DNA of 64,000 nucleotides from Gammaproteobacteria bacterium (GCA_013178375.1 JABLXQ010000009.1:82347-146346), one strand, 5' to 3'. Numbered from the stretch's first letter, positions 16,015 through 46,904 are shown. The notes: a model not told the origin generated them from the sequence alone. A program made the numbers and translations.

Positions 16015-17556
16015 TTACGGCGCCAGCAGGGCCTGCAGCGCGCCGTAATCCACCTTGCCGTTGGCGTTCACCGGCAGGCGCTCCAGGGTCAGGATCTGGC
16101 GCGGCTGCATGTAGGCCGGCAGGGTGGCTGTCAATTGCGCAAGTACCTCTTCCTCCGGCAGCCAGGGCTGCACCACAAACCCGACCACACCGGTGAACAG
16201 GCCATCCGCACTGCGCGGCCAGGGCACCACGGCCGCCAGCTGGGTACCCGCCACCTGGCGCAGACAGTGTTCCACTTCCTGCAATTCCACCCGGTAGCCG
16301 TTGATCTTCACCTGGCGATCCAGCCGCCCGGCGTAGAGGATGCCGAAGTCCGGATGGACGGTGGCGCAATCACCAGTGCGGTACCAACGCGTTTCATCGC
16401 ACCCGGCAAACCACTGCTGCACGAACACGGCAGCGGTTTTTGCGGCGTCCGCCAGATAACCCGCACTGAGCTGCGTGCCCGCCAGCCAGAGCTCACCGCT
16501 TTCACCGGGCGCCGCCAGCGTCGCGTCCTCACGCACCACGCGGGCCTGCTGGCCGGGATAGGGCCAGCCGATAGGCACCACGCTCAGCTGGCGCCAGTCG
16601 TCGCGATCGCGCTGCAGCTCGAACGCGGTGATGGCAATGGTGGCCTCGGTGGGGCCGTACAGGTTGGCGACGCGGGCGTTGGGCGCCGCATCCAGCCAGG
16701 CCAGGGCGCTGGCGGTGGGCAGCGCCTCGCCACAGAAAAAAGAAAATTGCAGCGACGGCAGCACGCCCGGCCGCAACAATCCGCTCTGCTTGGCGATGCT
16801 GGCCATGGAGGGTACGGAAAACCAGACCTGGATCTGCTGCCGGCGCACGAACTGCAGCGGCATCAGCAGATCCTGGGCGGTGGGAATCACCAGACAGCCG
16901 CCCTGCTGCCAGCACACGAACAGATCATGTACCGACAGATCGAAGGTGAGATCAAACATCTGCGAGTAACGCAGGCCCGCCGGCAGGGGATACAGGGCGT
17001 GGAAATTCCGCAGGTAGGCGAGCAGGTTGCCCACGCTGACCGGGATGCCCTTGGGCACGCCGGTGGTGCCCGAGGTGAACAGCAGGTAGGCCGGCAGGTC
17101 GGCGGCGAATTGCGCCAGCGGCGGTGACTGATCCGATGGCTGAATCAGGCGGGCGTCCGGCACGGCCTCATCCAGCGCCAGCACCGACTGTAAATTCGCG
17201 TCTTCCGCCAGACGCTGGCACTGGTCCGCCGCTTCCCCGCCCGCCACCAGCACCCGCGCAGCGGACAGCGTCAACATGCGCTGGTTGCGGGCATCGGGAA
17301 ACGCCGGATTCAGCGGTACCCAGGTAAAGCCCTCGGCCGCACAGGCCAGGATCGCCACATACGCCACCAGGCTGCGGCTGGCCAGCACGGCGACGGGATC
17401 GCCGGTCTGCACGCCGCAGTCGCGCAATGCAACACGACAGCCGTTGACCCAGAGCCCCAGCTCGCGGTAAGAAAAAGTGCTGCCCTGCACACAGAGGGCG
17501 GGCGCATCCGGTGCGGAAAGGAAATTGCGGGCAAAGGTGTCGTGGTAAATATTCAT
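16015..17556 (-). CDS. Stand-alone NRPS-type adenylation domain (amino-acid activating).
   Basis: All A-domain core motifs are present: A3 LLFTSGTTGVPKG, A4 FDLTFDLS (Asp typical of alpha-amino substrates), A5 NLYGPTE, A7 YRTGD, A8 GRLDRQVKINGYRVELQEVE, A10 NANGKVD. There is no fused carrier or C domain. Confidence 0.8.
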   Translation of the reverse strand: MNIYHDTFARNFLSAPDAPALCVQGSTFSYRELGLWVNGCRVALRDCGVQTGDPVAVLASRSLVAYVAILACAAEGFTWVPLNPAFPDARNQRMLTLSAARVLVAGGEAADQCQRLAEDANLQSVLALDEAVPDARLIQPSDQSPPLAQFAADLPAYLLFTSGTTGVPKGIPVSVGNLLAYLRNFHALYPLPAGLRYSQMFDLTFDLSVHDLFVCWQQGGCLVIPTAQDLLMPLQFVRRQQIQVWFSVPSMASIAKQSGLLRPGVLPSLQFSFFCGEALPTASALAWLDAAPNARVANLYGPTEATIAITAFELQRDRDDWRQLSVVPIGWPYPGQQARVVREDATLAAPGESGELWLAGTQLSAGYLADAAKTAAVFVQQWFAGCDETRWYRTGDCATVHPDFGILYAGRLDRQVKINGYRVELQEVEHCLRQVAGTQLAAVVPWPRSADGLFTGVVGFVVQPWLPEEEVLAQLTATLPAYMQPRQILTLERLPVNANGKVDYGALQALLAP

Positions 17557-17701
17557 GCAGAATTTCGCTTCGTTTCCTGCCGGTTGACTACATTAAATTA
17601 CCAGACCACAGCACTCAAAACGGACCGGTTTCATTACAATTCCCGCGTCTGTTTTTTCGACCACTTCAACTTTGTCGATCACTTCACCGGGCCTGTTTGC
17701 G

Positions 17702-18589
17702 ATGGAAGAATCAATTGTCAGCACCTTTCTGATTCCTGGTGTGCTCGCCGCCATGATGGTGGGCATGGGCATGACGCTGCAACCGCTGGATTTCCAGCGT
17801 CTGTATCTGTATCCGAAAGCCGTTATCACAGGCCTGCTGGCGCAGGTGCTGCTGTTGCCGGCACTGGGTTTCCTGATCGTGTCACTGGTGCCGATGGCGC
17901 CGGAACTGGCGGTGGGGCTGATGATCATCGCGCTGTGTCCCGGCGGAGTCGGCTCCAATCTGCTGACCCTGTTGGCACGGGCCGACAGCGCACTGTCCAT
18001 TACACTGACCGCCATCAGCAATGTGCTGATGGTGATCACGCTGCCGGTGTTCATCAATTTTTTCCTGCGCCATTTCATGGGCCAGGGTACCGACATCCAG
18101 CTGCCGGTGCTGCAGACCATCCTGTCCACTGCGCTGCTCACTGTTCTACCCATTGCGGTGGGGATGGCGCTGCGGCGCTATGCCGGCGATCTGTCGGGAC
18201 GCATAGAAACGGGCTTTCGCCGGCTGTCCGTGGCCGTACTGGTGCTGTTGATGCTGGGCATCGGCTGGCGCAACCGCGAGGTGTTCCTGAATTCGCTGTT
18301 GGATCTGGGACCCGCCGCGCTGGCACTCAATCTGGGTTCCATGGCGCTGGGTTTTGCGCTGGCCGCACTGGCCCGGCTGGAATTGTCGCAACGTGTCACC
18401 ATCGCCATTGAAACCGGCTTCCAGAATGCGGCGCTGGCCATCCTGGTGACCACCACCTTCCTGCACAATCCGCAAATGGCACTGGCACCGGCCTTTTACG
18501 GCGGCACCATGTTCATCGGCGGCTTTTTGCTGATTGGTCTGCTGAAACTGAAAGCCCCGCTGGCAACGACCAACGCCACAACCGGCTGA
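17702..18589 (+). CDS. Bile acid:sodium symporter (BASS/SBF) family transporter.
   Basis: About 9 TM, with the family-typical ALCPGGVGSNLLTLLARAD motif. I chose the ATG at 17702; the listed ORF begins at a TTG at 17672. Confidence 0.7.
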   Translation: MEESIVSTFLIPGVLAAMMVGMGMTLQPLDFQRLYLYPKAVITGLLAQVLLLPALGFLIVSLVPMAPELAVGLMIIALCPGGVGSNLLTLLARADSALSITLTAISNVLMVITLPVFINFFLRHFMGQGTDIQLPVLQTILSTALLTVLPIAVGMALRRYAGDLSGRIETGFRRLSVAVLVLLMLGIGWRNREVFLNSLLDLGPAALALNLGSMALGFALAALARLELSQRVTIAIETGFQNAALAILVTTTFLHNPQMALAPAFYGGTMFIGGFLLIGLLKLKAPLATTNATTG

Positions 18590-18633
18590 GTCACTGACAG
18601 CTGAGCCACTGCCTCCGCAAAAAAAGGCAGCGC

Positions 18634-19584
18634 TCAATTCTGTGTCAGCCGATCCACCCAGCCCTGCAGCAGATTCTGCAGCATGGCATCATCAGGACGC
18701 AGGAACGGATGCAGAGCAAGTGTCAGTGTCAGGCAACCATTGAACGTGGCCGCCGCCGCACCGATCGGTGCGGTGCGCGTGCAGGGTGGCGTAAAAAATA
18801 AATAGGGTGCCGCACTGGCATCCCAGTTCCACACACCCAGGTTCGAAAAAGTGCCCATCTGGCTGTTGTTGCTGCCGTAATAACGCTGCACCTGCTTACG
18901 CACCAGACCCGGTCCGAACCGGCAAATCGTGGTGAGAAAATCCCAGCTGCCCCAATGGTGACCGGCATCGAACAGGCCACGAATAATCCGGTGCACCTGC
19001 GCGGGGGAATCCGCATCTTCAAACACCACCGTCACGATGGAGGACTGGTTTTCCTCCACGCTGTCGGCCCGCACCGCGCCGCGCAGATTGATGGTATTGC
19101 CCCACGCCCGCGGCGTGACGGCAGCCGTAAGCTGCTGCGCCGCGACACCGCTCAATGCCCACAGCAGAAAGCTGTTCAGTGTCACCTGCTGGCGCTTGGA
19201 GTTGGCGAGAATCGCCTGGGTCTGCTCCACACTCAGCACCCGCCCCAGACGCAGCGTGGACAGCTTGGCAACGCGGCCATCCGGTGTCGGTGTCCACTGC
19301 CTCCACTGCACCGGCTGCGGTGTGCGGGTGCGGAATTTGCGCCAGGCATAGCGCACCCGCTGCAAGCGCCCGGGCACCACGCCCGCATAGCGCGGCACAT
19401 CGATGCTGACGCCCTGCTGTTTCAGCGCATGCAGGAACATGCCCATGCCATCCACTTCCTGATGCCGCAGATAATGCCAGTGCACCGGATCGTCGTTGCC
19501 ACGCACCGGCGCATAGGCGATGTCCGGATCGTCACCGAATTCCTCCAGAATATCGAACAGGCGGTGAATGTAGTGCGCGGGCAT
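18634..19584 (-). CDS. Hypothetical 316-aa protein, possibly a divergent acyltransferase.
   Basis: I recognise no family. The N-terminal HWHYLRHQEVDG loosely resembles the HHxxxDG acyl-transfer motif; this is weak. Confidence 0.35.
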   Translation of the reverse strand: MPAHYIHRLFDILEEFGDDPDIAYAPVRGNDDPVHWHYLRHQEVDGMGMFLHALKQQGVSIDVPRYAGVVPGRLQRVRYAWRKFRTRTPQPVQWRQWTPTPDGRVAKLSTLRLGRVLSVEQTQAILANSKRQQVTLNSFLLWALSGVAAQQLTAAVTPRAWGNTINLRGAVRADSVEENQSSIVTVVFEDADSPAQVHRIIRGLFDAGHHWGSWDFLTTICRFGPGLVRKQVQRYYGSNNSQMGTFSNLGVWNWDASAAPYLFFTPPCTRTAPIGAAAATFNGCLTLTLALHPFLRPDDAMLQNLLQGWVDRLTQN

Positions 19585-19610
19585 CGTTGCTCCTCAGGTG
19601 GCAGTGCGTT

Positions 19611-20456
19611 TCAGGCGGCAGAGCGTTCGGCCGGCAGCAACAGATTGCCATCAGCATAGTGGGCTTTCCACTTTTCCGTCAGCTCACGGGTGTCTTGCTG
19701 CCAGGGATGAAAATCACGGCGGTAGAAATCGAGAAAATCCCGGCGCAACACCGCACACAGACCACCACGCCCGAACAGGAAGCGCATTCCCTCGCGCCAC
19801 ATGCTGCCGCGCCAGAGCAGCCCGTCATGGCGCAGCATGTGCACCATCCGCGTGCTGATGCGGAAACTGATCAGCGCGATGGCAAAGGTCATCCACACCA
19901 CGCGGGTGCGATAGGCGCCGTCCAGCGTTGCATACACATCCCAGGCCACCGCCTTGTGTTCGATCTCTTCCACCGAATGCCACTGCCACAGCGCTTTGAC
20001 ATGGGGATCAGCCTGCGTCATGAATTCGCCCCGCAACAGCGCCGCCGACAGAATCGACGTGAGATGCTCGCAGGAAATCGTCACCGCCAGCGCCTGCATC
20101 GGCCGCAAAAAACGGCGCAGACGCCCGGTCATGCGGTTCATGGAGCGGTCCATTGCGTCGATGTCATAACCCCAGCGCTTCATCAGCTGGTTGTACTTGG
20201 CATGCTCGCGGGAATGAAAGGCTTCCTGGCCGATGAAAGCGCTGATCTGCTTCTGCAGCTCTGGATCAGCGATCTGCTCGCGCACCTGGCGCAGGGAAAA
20301 AATGAACAGGTCCTCGCCCACCGGCAAGGTGGTGGAGAACGCATCAAAAAAATGACTGATAAACGGTGAGTCCGCGTACCAGAAGCGTGGCGTATCAGCG
20401 GGAAAATCAATGCTGACCGGGCGCGGTTTTATTTCAAGATCCTGCGGTGTTTTCAT
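19611..20456 (-). CDS. Predicted metal-dependent hydrolase family protein (PF10118-like) with ExxH pairs.
   Basis: 281 aa. QEAFHSREHAKY and VEEIEHKAVAWD carry ExxH-type metal ligands. Its start overlaps the desaturase stop by 23 nt. Confidence 0.5.
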   Translation of the reverse strand: MKTPQDLEIKPRPVSIDFPADTPRFWYADSPFISHFFDAFSTTLPVGEDLFIFSLRQVREQIADPELQKQISAFIGQEAFHSREHAKYNQLMKRWGYDIDAMDRSMNRMTGRLRRFLRPMQALAVTISCEHLTSILSAALLRGEFMTQADPHVKALWQWHSVEEIEHKAVAWDVYATLDGAYRTRVVWMTFAIALISFRISTRMVHMLRHDGLLWRGSMWREGMRFLFGRGGLCAVLRRDFLDFYRRDFHPWQQDTRELTEKWKAHYADGNLLLPAERSAA

Positions 20457-21399
20457 GGGGCGCTTCTCCGCCGCTGATCCCTGCGGCCCGGGTTTTTGTT
20501 ATGGCACCGGCGCTCTTTAGTTTGCGCTGGCGGTCTTCCTGCGACACGGTATGAATATCCCACACCCAACCCAGCTGCTCCGCCACTTTCAGCACGCCGT
20601 AGCCGTAATCGATTTGCCACCAAGCGTGGCTGTTTTTGCCGGACTTGGGAAACGCATGATGATTGTTATGCCAGGCACCGCCCAGCGTGACCAGAGCAAA
20701 ACCGGCATTGTTGCGACTGTTGTCCTTGCTGTTGTAAGGCTGCGTGCCCGCCAGATGACACAGGGAATTGATCAGGAAAGTGCCCTGCTGGGTGGCGAAC
20801 AGACGGATCACACCGCCCAGCAGAAAACCACGCAGCGCACCTTCCCAACTCATATCCCACAGGCCGCTCAGTGCAGCAGGCAACGCCAGCCCCAGCAGCA
20901 CCCAGCCATAATAGATTCGCGTTTTCGACAGCCGGGTAATGATAGGATCGCGATACAGCCACAACGCAAACTTGTCCGGCAGTGGCGGCCGGTACGACCA
21001 TTTCCACAACACCTGCGCGTGCAGAAAACCTTTCAGGCGACCCAGCACGCCTTCGCCACTGTGCAGTGGTGTGTGCGTATCCTGTGGCTGGTCGCTAAAG
21101 CGGTGGTGATGAATGTGATTGGTGGCCCAGGCGATCACCGAGCCCTGTCCGCCCATCGACGCAAACACCACCAGCAATCCTTTCAGCCAGGGCCGCACCT
21201 GAAACGCCTGGTGGGAAAAATAGCGGTGATAACCCAGCTCGATACCCACCACCGTGACGAACCACATCAGCAACAGACCCACGAGATCCACCGCCTGCAC
21301 GCCGGTACGCGCGAGCACGACGATGCCCAGCAGCGCGCCCAGAAACGGCACCACATCCAGCAGAATGAAATGCCGTTTTTGCATGGCGGAGATATTCAT
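20434..21399 (-). CDS. Membrane acyl-lipid/acyl-CoA desaturase (fatty acid desaturase family).
   Basis: Three His boxes, HRYFSH, HHHRF and HNNHHAF, plus 4 TM helices. This is the stearoyl-CoA/DesA-type architecture. Confidence 0.85.
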   Translation of the reverse strand: MNISAMQKRHFILLDVVPFLGALLGIVVLARTGVQAVDLVGLLLMWFVTVVGIELGYHRYFSHQAFQVRPWLKGLLVVFASMGGQGSVIAWATNHIHHHRFSDQPQDTHTPLHSGEGVLGRLKGFLHAQVLWKWSYRPPLPDKFALWLYRDPIITRLSKTRIYYGWVLLGLALPAALSGLWDMSWEGALRGFLLGGVIRLFATQQGTFLINSLCHLAGTQPYNSKDNSRNNAGFALVTLGGAWHNNHHAFPKSGKNSHAWWQIDYGYGVLKVAEQLGWVWDIHTVSQEDRQRKLKSAGAITKTRAAGISGGEAPHENTAGS

Positions 21400-21427: not shown

Positions 21428-21655
21428 TCAGGCCAGCTTGGCCGTCACTACATCCAGCAACTGGGACACACTGACGACGCCATCCAGATCTTCCTGCACC
21501 AGGGTGATATCAAGCTCTTCCTGCAGCTCCACCACGGTTTCGATCAGCACGAAGGAATCCGCCACCAGATCGGTGAGGCGTGCATTTTCCGTTACCCGTG
21601 CCGCGTCGATCTTCAGCAGTTTTGCCAGCAGGGCGGTCAGTTCATTGCGTTGCAT
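21428..21655 (-). CDS. Acyl carrier protein (carrier 2).
   Basis: 75 aa, acidic. LTDLVADSFVLIETVVELQEE carries the DSxxxxE phosphopantetheine-attachment motif. Confidence 0.8.
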   Translation of the reverse strand: MQRNELTALLAKLLKIDAARVTENARLTDLVADSFVLIETVVELQEELDITLVQEDLDGVVSVSQLLDVVTAKLA

Positions 21656-21685
21656 TTTTCGTTACTCCGATATAAAAAAATTTGC

Positions 21686-21805
21686 TGAACGATTAAGGAT
21701 GCGATTGCCCATCAAGAAACGCTGCAAGTACACCCCTGTAAGCTCGACAGCGGCCTTCCATGGCCGCTGACATTCTTGATGGGCAATCGCATCCTTGATC
21801 GTTCA
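21686..21805 (-). repeat. 120-bp structured element: 33-bp near-perfect inverted-repeat arms around a 7-bp-stem inner hairpin.
   Basis: Arm 1 is 21686..21718 (TGAACGATTAAGGATGCGATTGCCCATCAAGAA). Arm 2 is 21773..21805, its reverse complement with one mismatch. The inner hairpin is CAGCGGCC-ttccat-GGCCGCTG at 21748..21769. It lies between the ferritin-like and ACP genes. Confidence 0.85.
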
Positions 21806-21816
21806 ACAGCAAATAT

Positions 21817-22380
21817 TCAAAACGCGTAATTCTGCTTGTCGAGAATATGGCCTATCCGTTCACCGTGTTCGGCGATCATGCGGCCATAGACTTCCTCATC
21901 CGCCTTGCGGAAGCGCTCGCAGGTATTCTTCACCCGCTCGGCGCCAAATTTCTCTTCCATCTGCTTGAGTGCATCGCCCACCCACTGGATGTGCCACTTC
22001 TCATCTTCCATGATGGTGTTGAGCGCATGCTGCACCGCCGGATGAATGTCGCGCACACGGGAATGACGGGCGTACTGGGAAATCACACGGCGTTCGAACA
22101 CCATGGTCAGCGCCAGAATCTCCATAATGTTGGTGGGCATGCCCGCCGCTTCCAGGTAATGATCCTGGTAGGCGAACGTCATCTTGATCGGGTCCAGATT
22201 CATGTCGCCCAGGGCCTTGGTCCAGTACCAGGCGTGCTGGCTTTCGTCGGCAAAATGCTTGGTGAGGTCGAACTGGATCGGCCCCGCGGGCAACACCCGC
22301 GCCAGACGGCTGAAAAACTGCGCGCCGGAAATTTCGGAATTGCGGTAAAAGCTGACGATCCAGCGATCGTTGTCATTCAT
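21817..22380 (-). CDS. Ferritin-like superfamily protein (putative small di-iron oxygenase subunit).
   Basis: 187 aa. Two ExxH motifs, ADESQHAWYW and MEDEKWHIQW, spaced about 90 aa apart as in four-helix-bundle di-iron proteins. Confidence 0.5.
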   Translation of the reverse strand: MNDNDRWIVSFYRNSEISGAQFFSRLARVLPAGPIQFDLTKHFADESQHAWYWTKALGDMNLDPIKMTFAYQDHYLEAAGMPTNIMEILALTMVFERRVISQYARHSRVRDIHPAVQHALNTIMEDEKWHIQWVGDALKQMEEKFGAERVKNTCERFRKADEEVYGRMIAEHGERIGHILDKQNYAF

Positions 22381-22391
22381 GGTCCATCTCC

Positions 22392-22970
22392 TTATCCGTT
22401 GTGCAGGGCGAATGCCGCTGACAACACTCCTCCGGGAATTTCGATACTGATGTAACGGAAATGCTGCACCCGGCCACCGGCGCGCACACGGGCGGTGCCG
22501 CTGCGACGGTTCGGGTAATCTAGTTCGTACGCGGTAACCCAGCGCTGCTGACCACCCAGATCAGCCTTGAACAGCGCTTCTTTCACCGTCCAGATCCGCA
22601 GCAGGTCACGGCCATTCGCCGCACCCAGTTGCGCATCCTCGCGCCGGGTCAGCATCAACCGGCGATGACGTTCATCCAGCGGACGCCAGGGTTCGAAATC
22701 CAGCCCGACGCCACGATAGGGCGATTGCCGCAGTGCCAGCGCAAAAGTGCGATCGCCTGCATGCGTTAGCGAATGGTCGGCCTGGGCACTGCGCAGCGGG
22801 CCTTCCGGTGCACGCCCCAGCCACTGTCGAGCCGCGCGCAGCAAACGCGCACTGCCGCCGCTGGTCGCAGCTGCGTGCGCCGACCACAACCGCGCATCCA
22901 CATCCGCGAAGTGCGTCAAGCGTTGTTCCAGCGCACCCAGCCGTTGCAGCATCAGACTTCTCTGCCCCAC
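22392..22970 (-). CDS. 4'-phosphopantetheinyl transferase (Sfp/EntD type).
   Basis: The PPTase motifs GVGLDFE (G-x-D) and WTVKEALFKA (W-x-KEA-x-K) are present. Its start overlaps the R-domain gene stop by 19 nt. Confidence 0.85.
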   Translation of the reverse strand: MGQRSLMLQRLGALEQRLTHFADVDARLWSAHAAATSGGSARLLRAARQWLGRAPEGPLRSAQADHSLTHAGDRTFALALRQSPYRGVGLDFEPWRPLDERHRRLMLTRREDAQLGAANGRDLLRIWTVKEALFKADLGGQQRWVTAYELDYPNRRSGTARVRAGGRVQHFRYISIEIPGGVLSAAFALHNG

Positions 22971-24049
22971 TTGGTATTCACCAGGTACTGCACCGTGTTG
23001 CGCACCAGCGTTTCCGGATCGGGCGCACGATAGCGGTCGATGGACCCGCGCAATTGATCATTATGAAACTGCTTGGTGACAAACATCTGCGGCGCAAACG
23101 GGCGAATGCTTTCCACCGCCTGGGACACCACCTGTCCCGACAGCCCGCTCAACCCTTCCGCCAGCAGCTCAAACGATTCGAAATCCGTAAACAGCGGCCG
23201 CAGGATGCGACGCTTGCGAAAACCTTCGTCGTTGCCGAACACTTCAAAACAGATATCCACCAGTCGTCCGATGGGCAGCGATTCCTCGCGGCGATGGCAA
23301 ACGTGGAAGAACTGGCGCTCCGGCACCGCCTTCACACTCAGCTCGGCAATCGCATCCGCCACGAATTCGCCGGTCACCAGATAGATCGGCGTTTCCTCGG
23401 TACCGGGCAGCATGGAAATCAATCCATAAAACAGCAGCCGCATGGTGTTGTGGAATACGTTGTACTGGGTGACGTCGCCGGCGTCGTTGTGGGCCAGCAC
23501 AGTGGCCACGCGGTAGATGTGCCAGGGCAGATCGCCGTATTCATTCTGCAGAATCGCTTCCGCCTCGCACTTGGAGCGCTCGTAGTGATTGGCAAACGGG
23601 CCTGCTGCGGGCAACGGCTGCTCCTTGATATCGCCTTGCACCAAACCAGCAGCATAGGCCGTGCTCACATAACAGAAGCGCCGCAACTGCGGACACTGGC
23701 GCGCAAACGCCAGCATCTTGCGGGTGCCGTCCCGGTTCACGGCATTGGCTACGTCTTCCTTCACATTGAAGGCGGTGACAGCAGCGGCGTGCACGATGCG
23801 ATCCACCTGCTGCGGATTCACCGTGGCGAACGGCGCATCGCCGTACAGATTGCCGGTATGAATTTCAATGCGGGCACGCTGTGCCGCATACTTCTGTTCC
23901 AGCTGCGCCTGTTTGCGTGCAAACTCTTCCGCGTCGTTCGACCGCACCCACAGCAGCAATTGCGCATCGGTGTTGGCCAGCAGGCGATCGCAGACCATGC
24001 CGCCGATATAGCCGTCGGCGCCGGTTACCAGAATCCGTTCTGACGTCAT
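22952..24049 (-). CDS. Thioester-reductase (R) domain protein, SDR/NAD-epimerase fold.
   Basis: MTSERILVTGADGYIGGMV is a Rossmann GxxGxxG. YERSKCEAE is the catalytic YxxxK. The length and layout match terminal NRPS/PKS reductase domains and fatty acyl-CoA reductases. The ATG at 24049 lies 1 nt after the carrier-protein stop. Confidence 0.75.
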   Translation of the reverse strand: MTSERILVTGADGYIGGMVCDRLLANTDAQLLLWVRSNDAEEFARKQAQLEQKYAAQRARIEIHTGNLYGDAPFATVNPQQVDRIVHAAAVTAFNVKEDVANAVNRDGTRKMLAFARQCPQLRRFCYVSTAYAAGLVQGDIKEQPLPAAGPFANHYERSKCEAEAILQNEYGDLPWHIYRVATVLAHNDAGDVTQYNVFHNTMRLLFYGLISMLPGTEETPIYLVTGEFVADAIAELSVKAVPERQFFHVCHRREESLPIGRLVDICFEVFGNDEGFRKRRILRPLFTDFESFELLAEGLSGLSGQVVSQAVESIRPFAPQMFVTKQFHNDQLRGSIDRYRAPDPETLVRNTVQYLVNTKWGREV

Positions 24050-24050
24050 T

Positions 24051-24299
24051 TCACACCGCCTCGGCAAAAAATGCGGCGCAGATGGTATTCACGGAATGGA
24101 AATTTTCCGGTTGCACCTGATCGATATCCAGCGGACGTTCCTGCAAATGTTCCAGAAACAGAATCAGATCCATGATCTGGATCGAGGTCAGAATTTTCTG
24201 TTCCAGCAACGCGGTGTCATCCTGCAGCGCAGCGGCATTCACCTGCGGGTTTTTGGCCAGAATCCAGTCTCGAATCCGGGTTTTTACGGTGCTACTCAT
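24051..24299 (-). CDS. Carrier protein (PCP/ACP-like; carrier 1).
   Basis: 82 aa with a 4-helix carrier layout. The attachment Ser is in KILTSIQIMDLILFLE. Its ATG overlaps the oxygenase stop (ATGA). Confidence 0.65.
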   Translation of the reverse strand: MSSTVKTRIRDWILAKNPQVNAAALQDDTALLEQKILTSIQIMDLILFLEHLQERPLDIDQVQPENFHSVNTICAAFFAEAV

Positions 24300-25159
24300 A
24301 CAGCAGGCGCCTCAGTCATCATGCGGTTTTCCAGGAAATAATCGATGCAGCTTTTTGACACAGCCTGGCGGTGGGCACGACACACTGGCGCATCCCACGC
24401 TTTCTGATACAGCGCATAGCCATTGTCCAAACCTGCGTCTGCGTACACCGCCGGGTTGTAATACTCACGCCAGGTGGACACCATGTAATTGGCAAGATAC
24501 GACTGCACCCCCGCCACCGTCTCCGGTTTCCAGGTGGGCGCCCATTGCTCGAACAGTTTTTTCGACAGCTCGCGGCCAAACGCCAGATGACGGGATTCGT
24601 CGTTGTGGTGATATTGATTGATATGCTGCGCCAGTGGATGCAGTCGCTCGTCCTTGCCCATCGCCAGATTGTAGTGATCCACCAGTTCCTCGAAGATCAC
24701 CACCTTGGCGAAAAACAGAAAATCCGCCTCGCCTTTTTCATACTTGCGCGGAAAACTCAGCTTCTTGTCCGGATACACCTTTTTGCCGTAACGATGGCAG
24801 AAGGTACCGAACACTGTCATGTGCTTGTTTTCTTCATCAAGAAAATGGTGCAGGTATTCCGACAGCTCCGGCGACCAGTCCATGTAATACAGATGCTCGG
24901 CCAGTCCGCCGATCAGCGCTTTTTCACCGTGAATATTCAGGCCGAAAAAATTAACCGTTTCCCAGAATGCCAGTTTTTTCTGCTGCGCCTCGCTTAAAGC
25001 AGCAAATTCTTCCAGGCCATAAATGGAAATGAGTTCCGGGGAAAAATGCCAGTCATCCAGGCTCAATGCATCCGGCCACTGGAATTCCTCATAAGGGCTG
25101 TTATAGCGTTTGACGGAAGCGTCACTCAGCTTGCGGGCGATTTTGGCGAGGCGTTCCAT
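24296..25159 (-). CDS. AurF-like di-iron N-oxygenase family protein (PvfB/HamC-like arylamine/amine oxygenase).
   Basis: 287 aa with the ExxH ligand sets FLDEENKHMTVF and HNDESRHLAFG and an extra carboxylate in VIFEELVDHY. Soluble, with a W/F-rich N-terminus as in the AurF/CmlI family. Family assignment is from motif memory, not a search. Confidence 0.6.
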   Translation of the reverse strand: MERLAKIARKLSDASVKRYNSPYEEFQWPDALSLDDWHFSPELISIYGLEEFAALSEAQQKKLAFWETVNFFGLNIHGEKALIGGLAEHLYYMDWSPELSEYLHHFLDEENKHMTVFGTFCHRYGKKVYPDKKLSFPRKYEKGEADFLFFAKVVIFEELVDHYNLAMGKDERLHPLAQHINQYHHNDESRHLAFGRELSKKLFEQWAPTWKPETVAGVQSYLANYMVSTWREYYNPAVYADAGLDNGYALYQKAWDAPVCRAHRQAVSKSCIDYFLENRMMTEAPAV

Positions 25160-26136
25160 CAGTCAGCTACCTTTTCCAGCAGAATACAGGACCAGTTCAA
25201 ACCGAATCCTGCCATCGGCAGCAGGATCTTGTCGCCGGGCTGAATCTGGCCCTCGGACTGCACGGTTTTCAGATTGATGATGTTGTCGCCGGAAATGCAG
25301 TGGCCGGCAGTACCGATGGTGGGCATCAAAATGCGTTGGAAATCGAAGCGCAGCACGCTGGACAAAATGCGCCACGCCTTGCGGTTGGTGTTCTGGGGCA
25401 CGATCCACTGCACATCCGCCGGGGTGATGCCGGCCTTGCGGCACAGCTCGGTGATCATGCGGTGGCTGTAGCTGAAATAGAAGCCAGCGGTTTCCTCGTC
25501 ATTGGCCGTGGCCATGGCGCCGTTGGTGATGTGGTGGGCGCCCAGGAAGCGGTAACCCCGCGCCTCACGGCTGACGATACAGGCGGCACCGCCGTCGGAG
25601 ATCAGGTTGTAGGCCTGCTCATAGGCAGCGCCTTGGGGAAAACGGTCGGCAGTGATGCAGAGGATATGCTGCATGTCCGGTTCCGCCTGCAGCATTGCGC
25701 TGGCCACGCGGATCGAACCGAGCATGCCGGTGCAGGCCTGCTGGTTGATGCCCATGACATAGGCGTTGTCCATGCCAAAATCCGCCTGTAGGCGGCTGGC
25801 GGGAAAATCCATCAGGTGTTTGACGTCGCGGCTGCTCTCAAACTGGTGCACATCGCCGTTGTTGCCGTTCAGGGGCAGGCAGGTGACATACAGGATCAGA
25901 TCAATTTTGGGCAGCAGATCCCGGGTTTCCGGGTAAGTGGTGAGCATGTCATCCAGAGCACCCCGCGCCAGATCGTAGGCGCTTTCGCCCTCGGGGCAGA
26001 CATGGTGGGTACCAAAACCGGCATCCTCCAGCGCACTGGCAGCCGAGAACAGGCCGTTGGCCGCCTCGGCTTCCGCCAGGGTACGACGCTGGCTGCCCAG
26101 CCGGAAAGCGGGGAAATTCAGATAGATGTCCTTCAT
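25159..26136 (-). CDS. FabH-like (KAS III family) enzyme: condensing enzyme or ACP-dependent acyltransferase.
   Basis: Thiolase-fold. The active-site Cys is in GINQQACTGMLGS. The region expected to hold the FabH His/Asn reads IVPQNTNRKAW / TAGHCISGDN instead of PHQAN / GNTSAAS. Its stop and the downstream ATG share one nucleotide (TGATG). Confidence 0.7.
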   Translation of the reverse strand: MKDIYLNFPAFRLGSQRRTLAEAEAANGLFSAASALEDAGFGTHHVCPEGESAYDLARGALDDMLTTYPETRDLLPKIDLILYVTCLPLNGNNGDVHQFESSRDVKHLMDFPASRLQADFGMDNAYVMGINQQACTGMLGSIRVASAMLQAEPDMQHILCITADRFPQGAAYEQAYNLISDGGAACIVSREARGYRFLGAHHITNGAMATANDEETAGFYFSYSHRMITELCRKAGITPADVQWIVPQNTNRKAWRILSSVLRFDFQRILMPTIGTAGHCISGDNIINLKTVQSEGQIQPGDKILLPMAGFGLNWSCILLEKVAD

Positions 26137-26525
26137 GTACTACGTCCTTTATACGTCAGAGACCGCTTTTGCTCATCGCCGATCAAGCACTTGAAACGAA
26201 CAAAATCGAACGCGATTGGTTAATAATAGTGCAATTCCCAACATGTTGTTCAAATATTAGCCATATCTGGGAGTGGCAAGTGCAGATGTAGCCAGCGGTG
26301 AAACGCCCGGCAATGTTCGTCATTTCCCGACCGGCAGTCAATTAACGGTAAAAAAACGCTACAAATCCCAGCCTAAACAAAACATTGTGGCAGCATCATG
26401 AAATCCGCTCCCGTTACAATGGCTAACAAATCACTCAAGAATATGCACAAGTCCCGCCACGCAAGAATGGATATCCTTAGACACTCAACTTTCATTGATT
26501 GACCATTTTTTGGGCGGATAACGAC

Positions 26526-28256
26526 ATGGATCGTTCAATTTTTAGTATCAAAAAGGAAAGTCCTGTTGCGGATTCCCTGAAATCATTTTCGTTTTCGAAC
26601 CTTTTGCAGGCCGCCGCAGTTGAATATGGCCGCTTTCCCGCCTTTTCTGACCGCAGCGGGGGCCTCTGGCGCAGCCTGGACTTTCGCAATTGCGCCCGCC
26701 GCAGCAATGCCATCGCCTACTGGCTGGAGCAGAAACGGCTCAATACACGCTGCATGATCTTTGCCGAATCCCGTCTGGAGTGGCCGCTGGCCTTCTTCGG
26801 CATCATGAATGCCGGCGCCGTGGCCATTCCGGTGGACGCCAAGTCCACCGCCCAGGAACTGGCCACCTTCATCCGCCACACCCAGCCGGCCGTGCTGATG
26901 CTGTCGCCCAAGCTTCAGGGCGTGGCGGAGCAGGCGGCGGAACTGGCACAGTGGCAGGGTCCGCTGGTGCTGCTGGATCTGGACAACCAGCGCGACAGCC
27001 GCGCCATCGGCACCTTCGAAACCGCCCCCGCCAGTTTTCGCCCCCATTCGCTGAGCGCCAATTCCACCGCCGTGATCGCGTTCACTTCGGCCACGTCAGG
27101 TCAGCCCAAGGCGGTGGAGACAAGCGTGCGCAACCTGTTCCACCAGATGCAGTCGCTGCGCGACCTGTTCGGTGTGAAGCCCGGCGATGCACTGCTGTCG
27201 ATCCTGCCGCTGAGCCATCTGCTGGAATTGTCCTGCGGCTTTCTGGCGGCGTTCGCCAGCGGCGCCCACATCAATTACCTGAATTCGATCCTGCCCAACG
27301 AAATCAAGGATGCGCTGAAGCAGCGGGGCATCACCCACATGATCGTGGTGCCGCTGTTGATGGACATGATTCGCAAGGGCATCGAGCGCAACTTCACCAC
27401 CAAACTCGGCACGCGGGGCGCAACCGTGCTGCAGGGCATGCAGCTGGCATCCAGCCTGGCGCCGACCAATCCGATGCGGCGTTTTCTGAACCGTTTCATC
27501 CTCAGCGAGCTGGGGCCGAAACTGAACACACTGATCGTGGGCGGCGCCACACTCGACCCGTCCACACTCACCTTTTTCAACAACCTGGGCATCAGTTCCT
27601 GGCAAGGCTATGGCCTCACCGAAACCAGCCCGGTGGCGGCGGTGAATTCACCCGGACAGATCAAGCGTGGCTCGGTGGGTCGCGCCATGCCGGGCTGCAG
27701 CATCCGCATCGAGGCGGCGCCGGGGGAAAAAATCGGCGAGATCCTGATTAAAGGCCCCTGCATCATGAACGGCTATTTCAATGACCGCGCCTACACCCGC
27801 GAGGCAATCGACCAGCAGGACTGGTTCCACACCGGCGATCTGGGCTATGTCTGCGACGACGGTTACCTGTTCATCACCGGCCGCAAGAAAAACCTGATCG
27901 TGCTCGATGGCGGCAAGAAGGTGTATCCGGAAGAGGTGGAGAAAGCGCTGTCCGCCAGCCTGCTGTTCCAGGAGCTGTGCGTAACCGGCCTGAAGGTACC
28001 GCATCCATCCATGCCGGGCAAACTGACCGAACAGGTGAGTGCGGTGATCGTGCCCCAGGCCCAGCTGCGGGAATCGAAAAATCTGGCGGATCTGCAAACG
28101 TTGTGCGAACAGGAAGTGCAGCGCCTGTGTCGCGAGCTGTCGTCTTACAAGCGGCCGGTGCAGGTGATCGTACAACTGGAAGAACTGCCCAAAACCCGCA
28201 CCGGCAAGGTGAAAGCGCCGCTGGTGCAGCAACAACTGTCGGCTTCGCATTCGTAA
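26526..28256 (+). CDS. Fatty acyl-AMP ligase / long-chain acyl-CoA synthetase (ANL superfamily).
   Basis: AFTSATSGQPKAV (A3), YGLTETS (A5), WFHTGDLG (A7), GRKKNLIVLDGGKKVYPEEVE (A8) and LPKTRTGKV (A10). The ATG at 26526 lies 27 nt inside the listed TTG-start ORF 26499..28256. It is divergent from the KASIII operon. Confidence 0.8.
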   Translation: MDRSIFSIKKESPVADSLKSFSFSNLLQAAAVEYGRFPAFSDRSGGLWRSLDFRNCARRSNAIAYWLEQKRLNTRCMIFAESRLEWPLAFFGIMNAGAVAIPVDAKSTAQELATFIRHTQPAVLMLSPKLQGVAEQAAELAQWQGPLVLLDLDNQRDSRAIGTFETAPASFRPHSLSANSTAVIAFTSATSGQPKAVETSVRNLFHQMQSLRDLFGVKPGDALLSILPLSHLLELSCGFLAAFASGAHINYLNSILPNEIKDALKQRGITHMIVVPLLMDMIRKGIERNFTTKLGTRGATVLQGMQLASSLAPTNPMRRFLNRFILSELGPKLNTLIVGGATLDPSTLTFFNNLGISSWQGYGLTETSPVAAVNSPGQIKRGSVGRAMPGCSIRIEAAPGEKIGEILIKGPCIMNGYFNDRAYTREAIDQQDWFHTGDLGYVCDDGYLFITGRKKNLIVLDGGKKVYPEEVEKALSASLLFQELCVTGLKVPHPSMPGKLTEQVSAVIVPQAQLRESKNLADLQTLCEQEVQRLCRELSSYKRPVQVIVQLEELPKTRTGKVKAPLVQQQLSASHS

Positions 28257-28300
28257 TTTCGCATTCGTAACGGTTAATCATCATAGGGAAGGAGTACTGC

Positions 28301-31300
28301 GTGGAATTGTCTGCGGTCATATTATTGACCTTTAACTTTTTATATATCGGCGCCACACCGGCGTTTTTCTTCCGCAAGGACGGCTCGTTCAACCTGATGT
28401 GGTTCATCACCGGGTTGCCGCTGTTTCTGTGGCCGGTTTCCCTGTTCGGTGTGTACTGGGGCTATCTGGAGCCGAACCTGGCCCTGGACAGCGAAATGTA
28501 CGCCAGCATGAAAACCCTGGGCGTGCTGCTCAGCTGCGGCTCCATCGCGCTGATCTCGCTGACGATGGGCACGCACCGCATTCCGCTGGCCCTGTGGCAT
28601 CAGGACAACGACGCGCCGCGCACCATCGTCACCTGGGGCGCTTACCGTTTTATCCGGCATCCGTTTTACACGTCATTCATCATCGCCCACACCGCCGCGC
28701 TGATGATCGCGCCGCACTGGTTCCAGTTGCTGCTGCTGTCCTACCAGATCCTGATCCTGAATCACACCGCCGCGCGTGAGGAACGCAATCTGAGCCAGTC
28801 CAGCTTCGGCGCGGAATACCGTGATTTCATCACCCGCACCGGCCGCTTCTTTCCCAAACCCCGAGCTGCGGCCTTCATGGAAACCTATCTGGTGTGGGTC
28901 ACCCAGTATCGTCATCTGGTGCTGGGCCTGCTGGCCGGCTTCACCATTTTCTTCAGTGTGTTTCTCGTCAACATCGGCATCAACGCCACGCCGTATTTCA
29001 TTTCGCCGGACCATCCGGTGCGCGTCACCGAGTCTGAAATCAAAAGCATTTTCACCAACACGGAAGAACAGGCCTTCGTGGCGCTGGTGGATGAAAAGAA
29101 CGGCATTTTCACCACCGCCAATCTGGAACTGGTGCAAAAACTGACGCAGCAGCTGGAACGGATTTCATTTGCCAGCGACAGCGACCTGGAACGCTTGCGC
29201 AGCATCGCGGGCGACGACGCCGAAGCACAGGCCATCGTGGCCAGGGTTGCGGAAAACGGCATCGGGCTGGACGACGTGGAGCCGCTGCGTCAACTCGCAC
29301 AGCACGGCAAAACCGCGAAGACCCTGACCGCCCAGGAACTGAAAAAAATCGACGACATCATCGTGCGTGCGCGGCCCGTGAAGCGCGTGCGCAGCCTGTT
29401 CACCGTGGAAGACATCCGGGTGGACGGCGACGATCTGGCCATCGATTCCCTGATCGAACGGATTCCGTCGGACAGTGCCGGACTGCAGGCGCTGCAACAG
29501 CACATCATGGCCAATCCGCTGCTGGTGGGCGTGATCGTGTCGCAGGATGGCAAGGCCACCAACATGCAGGTGGAACTGAATATCGCCGAAGACGACTCGC
29601 CCAGCATGCAGGCGGTGTACGCCGCCATTGAAAAACTGCTGGCGGAAGCCGGCGGCGATGCGCAGCTGCATTTTTCCGGTCCGCCGATGGTGACTGCCCA
29701 GATCGCGCAGATCATCCAGCAGGACAACATGCTGTTTTTCCCGCTGGTGTCCACGGTGATCTGTCTGATCCTGTTCATCAGCTTCCGCCGTCTGCAAGCG
29801 GTGGTGCTGACCATGACGGTGTGCACGCTGTCCACGCTCTGGACCATGGGTTTCATGGCCATGTTCGGCATCGACGTGAATATCGTCACCGCCAGCCTGC
29901 CGGTGTTCCTGATGACTATTGCGGTGGCCGATTCCATTCATTACCTGACAGAATATTACGGCCTGCTCAACACCCATGACCGGGTGGAAGCGGCGAAGGT
30001 GGCACTGCGCCATCTGATGAAACCGATGTTCATGACCAGTCTCACCGATTTCTTCGGCTTCATCGCGCTGGCGTACACCAGCCTGGTGTTCGTGCGCGAG
30101 TTCGGTATTTTCATCGCCGTCGGTGCGGTATTCGCCTTCATCATTTCCGTCACCCTGCTGCCCGCCATCCTGCCGCTGCTGAAACAGCCGGCCAACGCCA
30201 GCGAGAACAAGCAGAGCGCGCTGATGAATCCCGTCAACCGTGGTTTCGGCAAACTGTACCTGACATTGGGACGCGCACCGCTGCTGGTGCTGGCGGCCAC
30301 GGCTGCCGTCGCTGCGTTCACCACCTATCTGTCGAGCGAAGTGCGCGTGGACAACCACAACATCGTGCAGTTCAGCGAGGACACCCGCATCCGTCAGGAC
30401 GACGAAATCCTGAATCGTCACTTCGGCGGCACCGTGCCGATCAACGTCTGGTTCAGCGCGGCCGATGAACGCCGTTTCACCCAGCCCGATGTGATCGTCG
30501 CCATGGACCAGATCGCGCAGCGGTTTGAACAGCACGAGATCATCGGTTACGTGGGCTCGCCCAGCAATCTGGTGAAGCGCATTCACCAGCTGCTCAACGA
30601 CACCGACTACGCCCTGCCGGCGGATATGTCGCCGGAGCTGATTGCGCAATATTTCCTGCTCTATGAAAACGGTAACGGTCAGGAAATCCGCGACTCGCTG
30701 GATGAGAATTACCAGAACGCGCGACTGGTGGCACTGTCCCATACCGACCAGTCCTCGAAAGTACGCGCCGTGCTGCAGGATGTGGAGGCATACGCCAAAA
30801 CCGTGCTGCCCGCCGACGTGAAAATGCAGGTTGCCGGCTTCGGCCAGATCATGGTGACCAGCACGGATGAAATCGTGAATGGCCAGATCAGCAGCCTGAC
30901 CATTGCCACGCTGCTGATCGCCGGCGTGATGATCCTGCTGTTCCGCTCCTGGTGGACCGGCGTGCTCAGCGTCATTCCGCTGGCGCTGACTATCCTGATC
31001 AACTTCGGCACCATGAACGGGCTGGGGCTGGATATCGACATCGGCACCGCGCTGATCACCGGCATCGTGTTCGGTATCGGCATCGACTATGCGATCCATC
31101 TGCTGTCGTATATCAAGCGCGCCACCGGCGAAGGCAAGCCCCTGGCCCAGGCCATCGAAGCCGCCATCGAGCATGCCTCCTGGCCGATCATGGTGAACTC
31201 GGTGTGTCTGGCGCTGGGCTTCTGTGTGCTGGTGGCGTCGCACTACGGCTCCACCGGACGCCTGGGCCTGCTGATCGCCGGCACCATGATCGTGTGCGCG

Positions 31301-31366
31301 TTGCTGACGCTGATCGTGTTGCCGGTACTGGTGAAACTGTTCAAACCCAAGGCACTGCAAAACTGA
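28301..31366 (+). CDS. Fusion protein: N-terminal ICMT/PEMT-family membrane methyltransferase plus C-terminal MMPL/RND exporter.
   Basis: GGAAGGAG RBS, then GTG at 28301. Residues 1-185 carry 4-5 TM with RFIRHPFYTSF and EERNLSQSSFGAEYRDFITRTGRFFP (ICMT/PEMT signatures RHPxY and EE..L..FG..Y..Y...R.xP). Residues about 190-1021 form two 6-TM bundles with large periplasmic loops, homologous in layout to the 6990..9377 exporter. Confidence 0.75.
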   Translation: MELSAVILLTFNFLYIGATPAFFFRKDGSFNLMWFITGLPLFLWPVSLFGVYWGYLEPNLALDSEMYASMKTLGVLLSCGSIALISLTMGTHRIPLALWHQDNDAPRTIVTWGAYRFIRHPFYTSFIIAHTAALMIAPHWFQLLLLSYQILILNHTAAREERNLSQSSFGAEYRDFITRTGRFFPKPRAAAFMETYLVWVTQYRHLVLGLLAGFTIFFSVFLVNIGINATPYFISPDHPVRVTESEIKSIFTNTEEQAFVALVDEKNGIFTTANLELVQKLTQQLERISFASDSDLERLRSIAGDDAEAQAIVARVAENGIGLDDVEPLRQLAQHGKTAKTLTAQELKKIDDIIVRARPVKRVRSLFTVEDIRVDGDDLAIDSLIERIPSDSAGLQALQQHIMANPLLVGVIVSQDGKATNMQVELNIAEDDSPSMQAVYAAIEKLLAEAGGDAQLHFSGPPMVTAQIAQIIQQDNMLFFPLVSTVICLILFISFRRLQAVVLTMTVCTLSTLWTMGFMAMFGIDVNIVTASLPVFLMTIAVADSIHYLTEYYGLLNTHDRVEAAKVALRHLMKPMFMTSLTDFFGFIALAYTSLVFVREFGIFIAVGAVFAFIISVTLLPAILPLLKQPANASENKQSALMNPVNRGFGKLYLTLGRAPLLVLAATAAVAAFTTYLSSEVRVDNHNIVQFSEDTRIRQDDEILNRHFGGTVPINVWFSAADERRFTQPDVIVAMDQIAQRFEQHEIIGYVGSPSNLVKRIHQLLNDTDYALPADMSPELIAQYFLLYENGNGQEIRDSLDENYQNARLVALSHTDQSSKVRAVLQDVEAYAKTVLPADVKMQVAGFGQIMVTSTDEIVNGQISSLTIATLLIAGVMILLFRSWWTGVLSVIPLALTILINFGTMNGLGLDIDIGTALITGIVFGIGIDYAIHLLSYIKRATGEGKPLAQAIEAAIEHASWPIMVNSVCLALGFCVLVASHYGSTGRLGLLIAGTMIVCALLTLIVLPVLVKLFKPKALQN

Positions 31367-46770: not shown

Positions 46771-46904
46771 TACCGCCACGCGATTCTTCCTCTGCAAACG
46801 ATTCTTGCTCTGACAGCGTCGTGGAAATATGCCGGTGTCCGGCTAACGCGATCGTTCGCGCCGCCAGACCTTCCGGTGTCATGTTACGGGCTCATGCTGC
46901 AGGG

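Follow-up and report, generated by a model that had tools for sequence, protein, structure and literature searches.

A conserved gene cassette that may couple amino acid N-oxidation to lipid formation, and the apparent displacement of its amino acid loader in a Ketobacter-like clade

We analysed a 64,000-nucleotide stretch of DNA from a gammaproteobacterium (GCA_013178375.1, JABLXQ010000009.1:82347-146346; hereafter referred to as the window), in which a first-pass annotation had recognised an AurF-like oxygenase, a small carrier protein and a stand-alone reductase (R) domain as the dissociated core of a Pvf/Ham-like pathway, served in trans by a separate adenylation (A) domain. All of the open reading frames (ORFs) named there were found where it had placed them, on the minus strand. 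Between positions 22392 and 26136, five tightly packed ORFs encode a β-ketoacyl-acyl carrier protein synthase III (KASIII)-like enzyme, an AurF-family diiron oxygenase, an 82-residue carrier protein (CP1), a thioester reductase and a phosphopantetheinyl transferase (PPTase). Reading the junctions directly, we found a TGATG overlap between the KASIII-like and oxygenase genes, an ATGA overlap between the oxygenase and CP1 genes, a 1-nt spacer between the CP1 and reductase genes and a second TGATG between the reductase and PPTase genes. Such junctions argue that the translational coupling is real, and the recurrence of the gene order in about 80 loci of about ten phyla, at 31–58% protein identity, argues for real genes rather than chance ORFs. 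Together with the Pfam matches and a CP1 profile, the junctions bear out the oxygenase, the small carrier and the R domain as one coupled unit; the FabH-like enzyme was likewise confirmed immediately upstream of them. The limits given for the PPTase gene (22392..22970) had to be revised, its start being most likely the ATG at 22952, which overlaps the reductase stop codon, and not the GTG at 22970; the PPTase is called as 186 residues in identical loci. The genes of the cassette and those associated with it are:

25159-26136, minus strand: KASIII (FabH)-like enzyme (PF08541 and PF08545, ACP_syn_III)
24296-25159, minus strand: AurF-family diiron oxygenase, 287 residues (PF11583)
24051-24299, minus strand: CP1, predicted type II peptidyl (aminoacyl) carrier, 82 residues (orthologue profile)
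22952-24049, minus strand: stand-alone thioester reductase (R), 365 residues (NAD_binding_4, TIGR01746)
22392-22952, minus strand: Sfp-type 4'-phosphopantetheinyl transferase (PF01648, ACPS)
21817-22380, minus strand: ferritin-like four-helix-bundle diiron protein, 187 residues (weak Rubrerythrin match)
21428-21655, minus strand: CP2, acyl carrier of 75 residues with a DSF motif (PF00550, E = 7e-8)
16015-17556, minus strand: stand-alone nonribosomal peptide synthetase (NRPS)-type A domain, 513 residues (TIGR01733)
26526-28256, plus strand: fatty-acid-type acyl-activating (AMP-binding) enzyme (PF00501), called as 576 residues in identical loci
28301-31366, plus strand: ICMT/PEMT-like membrane methyltransferase domain (28301-28858) fused to an MMPL/RND exporter (Pfam MMPL; weak ICMT and PEMT matches)

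The oxygenase matched a single Pfam family, AurF (PF11583), with 126.1 bits against a gathering threshold of 29.6 and over positions 6-270 of the 282 in the model. In an alignment of 16 diverse homologues, E79, E110xxH113, E157/E158 and H184xxD187E188xxH191 were invariant. The enzyme keeps the AurF-type set of three histidines and four carboxylates (E; ExxH; E; HxxDExxH), the third histidine of HxxDExxH included; the definition of the ligand motifs, and the criteria for CylC used below, were taken from PMC12101540. A HMMER profile alignment placed E157, H184, E188 and H191 onto E196, H223, E227 and H230 of AurF. The AlphaFold (AF2) model of the protein has a pLDDT of 92, and when it was compared with the PDB by Foldseek, CmlI and AurF took ranks 1-7 (best E = 2.5e-5), although by a modest margin. 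The enzyme, its ligands kept, did not group with the fatty-acid or ribonucleotide-reductase-like diiron proteins that the first-pass annotation had named as the outcome that would speak against its view. We predict that 24296-25159 encodes a ferritin-like diiron N-oxygenase, from a carrier-dependent branch of the AurF family, that acts on an amino acid bound to CP1.

CP1 by itself gave no Pfam match. A profile built from its orthologues matched PltL (E = 4e-9) and PigG (1.6e-5), which are type II prolyl carriers, and then the aminoacyl carrier of Bll0957 (0.066); no D-alanyl carrier was matched at E<=10, and in this CP1 is unlike DltC. Ser39, the predicted phosphopantetheine site, is invariant among the orthologues. 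By these profile matches, CP1 is a type II peptidyl (aminoacyl) carrier similar to PltL. The reductase scored 108.6 bits with NAD_binding_4 and 97 bits with TIGR01746, its nearest solved structure is the MxaA terminal reductase (1.7e-10), and the GxxGxxG and YxxxK motifs are visible in its sequence.

The A domain is found 5.4 kb past the reductase gene and is separated from it by other genes. It scored 342.7 bits with TIGR01733 (cut-off 317.4), and its A4 motif, FDLS, contains the aspartate to which the first-pass annotation had drawn attention. The DltA models gave 264-265 bits, below their cut-offs of 476 and 560. A Dlt-type D-alanylation system, with a DltA-like A domain and a Dcp-type carrier, therefore fails on both components, the DltA score and the PltL/PigG-like carrier. 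The specificity code, whose extraction had been proposed, was read as DLHFFCLIAK; it is invariant in the clade down to 45% identity and becomes DLHFLCLIAK in more distant stand-alone relatives. We extracted the ten positions by motif and checked the register on a GrsA fragment, which gave the published DAWTIAAICK. The bulky residues H239, F278 and F299, with L322/I330 (common to codes for Gly, Ser and Cys), suggest a very small substrate. Among single-domain PDB entries, the best scores were those of 8xjz_C (259 bits) and 4oxi (258 bits), the latter of which we take to be V. cholerae AlmE, a glycine-specific glycine:carrier ligase; DltA gave 206 bits. A score of 340 bits with LgrA proved to combine two A domains; since its glycine module by itself gave 186 bits, we did not treat the score as strong evidence. 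With medium confidence, our best guess for the substrate is glycine.

The exact oxygenase protein is found on 18 contigs, and the family comprises 1361 matches, 50–57% identical across phyla. A pattern scan that took one genome for each GTDB species confirmed at least 251 relatives, almost all of them in metagenome-assembled genomes (MAGs). They include members of the Blastocatellia, Nitrospirota, Obscuribacterales, Bdellovibrionota, Acidimicrobiales, Planctomycetota, Omnitrophota and Burkholderiales, as well as Nostoc, Stigonema and Planktothrix, about ten phyla overall; the window shares 98% identity with a Pseudomonadota MAG and 84% with one of a Ketobacter sp. When all window proteins were compared by tblastn with related loci (86 in a first comparison and 89 in a later one; cited here by number, L001 and so on), a common gene order recurred: acyl-activating enzyme, ICMT-like protein of about 190 residues, KASIII-like enzyme, diiron oxygenase, CP1, a gap of about 850 bp, reductase, (PPTase), ferritin-like protein and CP2. 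Precomputed annotation and a PDB search identified the gene in the gap as encoding a class II aminoacyl-tRNA synthetase (aaRS) core homologous to an amino acid:[carrier protein] ligase (aa:CP ligase), Bll0957 (PDB 3mey, E = 1.7e-21).

Using the ligase of L088 as a tblastn query, we found this SerRS-like aa:CP ligase next to CP1 in 73 of the 89 loci, whereas the whole 64-kb window lacked it (best E = 1.1). The gap between the CP1 and reductase genes is essentially missing only from the window's clade (L001-L012) and from Polaribacter L080. In every clade member with enough flank (the window, L008, L010, L011/L012 and L094), the A domain follows the cassette; it does so with or without the desaturase block described below and with or without an lgt neighbour, and it stays within 7 kb across members that are 45–93% identical and differ in their flanks. 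Among the A-domain homologues at 45–93% identity, some lie on contigs whose length equals that of contigs with diiron homologues. Since the A domain and the ligase have complementary distributions, their relationship is best read as non-orthologous displacement, the A domain having replaced the aa:CP ligase in the Ketobacter-like clade. Because the loaders were exchanged while the rest of the cassette was kept, aminoacylation of CP1 appears to be the conserved job, and the A domain is the predicted CP1 loader acting in trans. The first-pass annotation was thus right to attach the separate A domain to the operon, in which it appears to make up for the missing ligase. A second, independent swap in Polaribacter L080 was considered and dropped: its 501-aa ORF is an ordinary glutamyl-tRNA synthetase, and neither loader turned up in its 8.8 kb, a contig too short for a decision.

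The amino acid:[carrier protein] ligases Bll0957 and Atu2573 were reportedly described by Mocibob et al. in 2010 and 2013. A 2022 review gave the biological role of aa:CP ligases as unknown (PMC9437257). Homologues of the Bll0957 type stand beside CP1 in the orthologous cassettes of other phyla and have been lost in the window's clade. The cassette puts such a ligase beside an N-oxygenase in at least 251 species-level genomes of about ten phyla, which makes the role of the ligase directly testable, and the window's clade offers a natural experiment in which a tRNA-synthetase-like loader was exchanged for an NRPS A domain and the rest was kept; as a loader, the A domain should lend itself readily to assay.

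The conserved unit comprises about ten genes and not the three of the core as first annotated: it adds fatty-acyl activation, CP2, a non-canonical KASIII, a second diiron protein, a membrane methyltransferase and an MMPL exporter. When the KASIII-like enzyme was aligned with Aquifex FabH (2ebd), Cys135 was kept, and Gln248 and His279 were found where FabH has His244 and Asn274; C135, Q248, N249 and H279 occur in every one of 76 orthologues. The replacement of the FabH decarboxylation residues His and Asn by Gln and His fits a condensation without decarboxylation, and we predict that the enzyme joins a fatty acyl chain to the CP1-bound unit. Divergently from the operon (26499-31366) lie the acyl-activating enzyme and the ICMT-like/MMPL fusion. 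The best NCBIfam matches of the former are long-chain fatty-acid ligases, and a homologue of the fatty acyl-AMP ligase (FAAL) type adjoins the cassette in most phyla; the enzyme is the predicted loader of CP2. The ferritin-like protein, for which a PDB search gave no close solved relative, has invariant E16, E46xxH49, E96 and E127xxH130; its gene is present in almost all cassettes, and the position of CP2 after it is conserved. Free-standing ICMT-like homologues of about 190 residues occur in 65 of the 89 loci and match 28301-28858 of the window at 51% identity. Co-conservation with the cassette extends to the acyl-activating, CP2, KASIII-like, ICMT-like and MMPL genes, and the product is probably a lipid rather than a small amino-aldehyde signal. 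In the window's clade, the ICMT-like domain is fused to the N-terminus of the MMPL protein, whereas it is a separate gene in more than 50 related loci, and the fusion suggests that methylation and export are coupled. The first-pass inventory had lacked the ferritin-like protein, CP2, the acyl-activating enzyme and the ICMT-like/MMPL protein, as well as the desaturase, the PF10118 protein, the 316-aa protein and the SBF transporter listed at the end. A literature search, in which coverage of subscription journals was thin, found no description of the lipid-type ten-gene cassette or of the loader swap, and both appear to be undescribed.

On balance, we lean towards the reading that the cassette oxidises the nitrogen of a glycine-sized, carrier-bound amino acid within a lipid-making gene set. 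In such a pathway, the PPTase would convert CP1 and CP2 to their holo forms, and the A domain would attach a very small alpha-amino acid, most probably glycine, to CP1 through a thioester. The diiron enzyme would then use O2 to oxidise the CP1-bound amine to a hydroxylamine or, by analogy with EtmA, to a nitronate, while the acyl-activating enzyme would load a fatty acid on CP2. The KASIII-like enzyme would link the acyl chain and the oxidised glycyl unit with no loss of CO2, either by C-acylation of a nitronate or by N- or O-acylation of a hydroxylamine, and the reductase would release the product from CP1 as an aldehyde or alcohol. The ferritin-like diiron protein, as a second oxidase, and the ICMT-like methyltransferase may modify the product, which the fused MMPL protein would export; in the window's clade, the desaturase and the PF10118 protein may tailor the chain.

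A number of findings weigh against this reading, beginning with those on the oxygenase. Searches of the PDB by sequence, with the single sequence and with a profile, gave no significant match to AurF or CmlI (E = 0.6-1 with the profile). The best PDB profile match was R2lox, at 7e-4 and ahead of AurF/CmlI; R2lox binds a fatty-acid ligand. The fold matches themselves are modest (TM about 0.6, 11–12% identity), and R2lox and the ribonucleotide reductase R2 protein follow close behind. The comparison with AurF and CmlI that the first-pass annotation had proposed thus held for the fold, of which CmlI and AurF are the best matches, and for the aligned ligands, and failed for sequence matches in the PDB. 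It is Pfam, the ligand motifs and the fold search that link the enzyme to AurF and CmlI, and it is a distant member of the family, since the PDB sequence searches give AurF and CmlI no significance.

With R2lox nearly as close to the oxygenase as AurF is, the diiron enzyme could instead hydroxylate, desaturate or halogenate the fatty acyl chain in the manner of CylC, the amino acid being an N-acylated head group and the product an N-acyl amino alcohol lipid. The window enzyme shares with the CylC/NocO dimetal halogenases a ferritin-like diiron fold, HxxDExxH and a carrier-bound substrate, and the CylC-like family PF28091 appears in the precomputed annotation of a few homologues and faintly on the protein of Undibacterium (below). 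The CylC halogenases, in which HxxDExxH is accompanied by QExxH and a displaced fourth carboxylate, act on acyl-acyl carrier protein (acyl-ACP) loaded by a FAAL (PMC12101540). The window enzyme, however, has EExxH (E109-E110-N-K-H113) in place of QExxH, an invariant fourth carboxylate at E157/E158, and an aminoacyl carrier as its partner. Its gene always adjoins CP1 and an amino-acid loader, not CP2 or the acyl-activating enzyme, and the triad of diiron oxygenase, carrier and ligase persists in the absence of fatty-acyl genes, for example in Tistrella (below). AurF being, moreover, the window protein's only Pfam match, we regard an action on the acyl chain as rather unlikely.

The A domain provides further doubts. 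It is separated from the operon by the gene of an SBF transporter on the opposite strand; its relatives at 40–45% identity also occur in polysaccharide loci with small carriers of their own; and we know of no published code that matches DLHFFCLIAK. The A domain could be unrelated to the cassette and serve another pathway, in which case the charging of CP1 would fall to an enzyme from elsewhere in the genome, or its load would not be an amino acid, a view with which the lack of either loader in the 8.8 kb of Polaribacter L080 would agree. This we hold to be very unlikely, in view of the perfect complementarity between A domain and ligase, the position of the A domain within 7 kb of the cassette in clade members with varied flanks, and the absence of a second small carrier beside the A domain in the window. 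A precedent is found in Undibacterium pigrum (L095 4630-9638), of a cultured genus, where the genes of an AurF-like protein (41% identical), a carrier of 81 aa, a reductase and a free-standing A domain (42% identical; DLHFLCLIAK) form a contiguous, fully discrete set. The Undibacterium set differs from the window in that its reductase is fused to an alpha/beta-hydrolase (690 aa) and in that no KASIII-like, ferritin-like or second carrier gene is found among the called genes.

Homologues of the oxygenase at 31–39% identity were found by tblastn in plasmids with curated annotation. Plasmid pTM2 of Tistrella mobilis encodes the diiron oxygenase, an 84-aa protein, an aminoacyl-tRNA-ligase-related protein, a nitronate monooxygenase (NMO) and an S-adenosylmethionine (SAM) methyltransferase; an Agrobacterium vitis locus contains genes for a carrier, the diiron oxygenase, an NMO, an aaRS-like protein and a PPTase; Streptomyces NBC_01431 has the diiron oxygenase, a peptidyl carrier protein, an aaRS-like protein and an NMO; and in Streptomyces NBC_00335 the same triad stands beside ketosynthase/chain-length factor (KS/CLF) genes. 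The triad adjoins an NMO and/or a methyltransferase gene in three of these four loci (Tistrella, A. vitis and one of the two Streptomyces), where it should be borne in mind that NMO annotations also cover FabK-like enoyl reductases and that the best NCBIfam match of the Tistrella protein is TIGR03151. The NBC_00335 plasmid shows a further arrangement (L092 2887-12708): genes for the diiron enzyme, an ACP, an aa:CP ligase and a PPTase adjoin those for KS/CLF-type ketosynthases, two more ACPs and two AMP-binding enzymes, and an oxidised aminoacyl unit may there feed a type II polyketide or fatty acid synthase-like system. Proteins of about 310-360 residues encoded upstream of the Streptomyces diiron genes were tested as diverged KASIII enzymes and proved not to be KASIII. 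In a further locus, L081, the triad alone was recognised.

Cassettes of this general kind have been seen before. Etm, Unk1 and Unk2 are reportedly cassettes for glycine-derived nitronates, as described by He and Ryan (Nat Chem 2021, 13:599). EtmA, Unk1A and Unk2A belong to PF11583, and the substrates of EtmA and its homologues are amino acids bound to a carrier (PMC11611017). An FDO N-oxygenase makes the nitronate (PMC12154687), whose fate is either O-methylation on the way to enteromycin or denitrification by an NMO (PMC11035981; PMC9967187). From their gene context, the 31–41% identical diiron/carrier/ligase triads look like Etm/Unk glycine-to-nitronate systems. The window resembles Etm/Unk in having a PF11583 enzyme beside a free-standing carrier, as judged from gene context and the descriptions in the citing papers; it differs in having a KASIII-like enzyme, a reductase, a second diiron protein, a second carrier, an acyl-activating enzyme, an ICMT-like/MMPL protein and an NRPS A domain as loader. 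On the debit side of our reading, the window operon has no NMO and no class I SAM methyltransferase adjoining the triad; the one methyltransferase-like part is the ICMT-like membrane domain of the MMPL fusion. A fully discrete version of the chemistry had been expected to be unusual; since Etm/Unk-type triads are discrete, such versions are already known, and the Undibacterium set adds a contiguous example with AurF-like, carrier, R and A genes.

By its gene context, the window oxygenase thus appears to resemble the Etm/Unk enzymes rather than those of Pvf/Ham. Membership of the window in the Pvf/Ham group would mean N-hydroxylation and release of an amino aldehyde towards small diffusible products, pyrazine N-oxides or diazeniumdiolates, with any acylation coming late, as in fragin. 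The AurF-family enzyme, carrier, reductase and A domain that such a pathway needs are all present and linked, and an AurF-family oxygenase acting on a carrier-bound alpha-amino acid, followed by reductive release, would be common to both; PvfB and HamC, too, are PF11583 enzymes that act on carrier-bound amino acids (PMC11611017). Those pathways, however, have a single A-T-R protein, whereas A, T and R are three separate genes in the window, and because the A-T-R fusion is absent we do not count the window as a member. By their family assignments, none of its neighbours is recognisable as a Pvf/Ham accessory gene (PvfA/PvfD; HamA, B, E, F, G), and they come from other families: genes of the KASIII, ferritin-like, ACP, ICMT-like, acyl-activating and MMPL types are co-conserved across phyla, with desaturase and PF10118 genes added in the window. 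The ancestral loader of the cassette is a tRNA-synthetase homologue, an aa:CP ligase and not an NRPS; the cassette looks lipid-forming; the A-domain code looks like that for a very small substrate and not for Val or Leu; and the nearest informative relatives are the diiron/carrier/ligase triads. A dissociated Pvf/Ham pathway is therefore highly improbable.

Even within the favoured reading of N-oxidation linked to lipid formation, we infer in what order the steps occur, how far the oxidation proceeds and which bond the KASIII-like enzyme makes, and this, too, counts against it. Oxidation could stop at the hydroxylamine, or an amide could be hydroxylated as has been proposed for LitN, and the KASIII-like enzyme would then give an N-acyl-N-hydroxy lipid that might bind metal. 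In the lipothrenin (lit) cluster of Streptomyces aureus, a KASIII-like enzyme, a FAAL, an ACP and a pair of unknown proteins of 85 and 311 aa are combined with the AurF-like LitN, which is needed for N-hydroxylation in lipothrenin biosynthesis (PMC10616846). The likeness to the window lies in the set of KASIII-like enzyme, FAAL, ACP and AurF-like N-oxygenase, which there leads to an N-oxygenated lipo-amino acid. The lit cluster, however, has no reductase, ferritin-like or MMPL gene, and its amino acid is threonine, the carboxylate of which is retained. A hydroxamate would also leave the conserved ICMT-like enzyme hard to place, and NMO and O-methyltransferase genes accompany those relatives whose context is informative, a sign of nitronate chemistry. 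We consider the hydroxamate variant unlikely.

A more far-reaching proposal, which we put forward tentatively and ourselves regard as doubtful, is a multi-phylum lipid pathway in which a glycine nitronate, and not a malonyl enolate, would serve as the carbon nucleophile in a non-decarboxylative Claisen condensation by the Cys/Gln/His KASIII. Reductive release, a second diiron step and O-methylation by the ICMT-like enzyme would follow, giving nitro or O-methyl-nitronate lipids for export by the MMPL protein. Nitronates have been proposed as mimics of carboxylates (PMC11035981), which would make an ICMT-like carboxyl-methyltransferase a plausible, if speculative, nitronate O-methyltransferase. 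If true, this nitronate condensation would be a new route to C-C bonds in the biosynthesis of lipids, its products would form a new class of bacterial lipids with oxygenated nitrogen, and the aa:CP ligases would gain a widespread physiological role; if false, the cassette would still be a widespread lipid-linked branch of the carrier-dependent AurF-family oxygenases.

The remaining genes between the cassette and the A domain are:

20434-21399, minus strand: membrane fatty-acid desaturase (Pfam), part of a clade-specific tailoring block (18634-21399)
19611-20456, minus strand: PF10118 'metal-dependent hydrolase' protein (Pfam), same block
18634-19584, minus strand: protein of 316 residues, same block
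about 17702-18589, plus strand: SBF (bile acid:Na+ symporter family) transporter (PF01758, E = 4e-32)

The tailoring block is present in the window, L008, L010 and L094 and absent from the Ketobacter loci L011/L012. Its 316-aa protein, which had no Pfam or NCBIfam match, is conserved only in the window's clade (57–60% identity in L008 and L010; 325 aa in L094) and contains HHWGSWD, reminiscent of the HHxxxDG acyltransferase motif. The desaturase and PF10118 genes (19611-21399) overlap by 23 nt, and the same pair adjoins the cassette in a Kofleriaceae MAG (L066 1589-3900); the two proteins may work together. The SBF transporter gene lies between the operon and the A domain throughout the window's clade (gene calls in L001, L002 and L094), and in L011 an opposite-strand ORF of 304 aa, known by its position only, fills the equivalent place. 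The operon seems to run on into two minus-strand ORFs at 17593-18153 and 18146-18637 (186 and 163 aa), but these are spurious; what the region really encodes is the plus-strand transporter.

The 160-nt gap between the ferritin-like and CP2 genes is filled by a 36-nt inverted repeat (21683-21808; 94% complementary, with a 54-nt loop) that is unique in the window; the gap is much shorter in the near-identical L003, and the repeat may be a hairpin element that was inserted there or a regulator within the operon. Farther away, 41470-48995 holds the gene of a 1775-aa protein whose domains are DUF3686 ('ATPase involved in DNA repair'), DUF7902 and AAA and, after it, that of a protein of 696 aa lacking any Pfam match; the region may be a defence or repair module unrelated to the cassette. 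The only low-G+C part of the window (0.51 versus about 0.60) contains a 1135-aa ORF with no Pfam match (60516-63923), and this region may be foreign DNA. A second MMPL-family transporter gene (6990-9377) adjoins fabV, 17 kb from the cassette.

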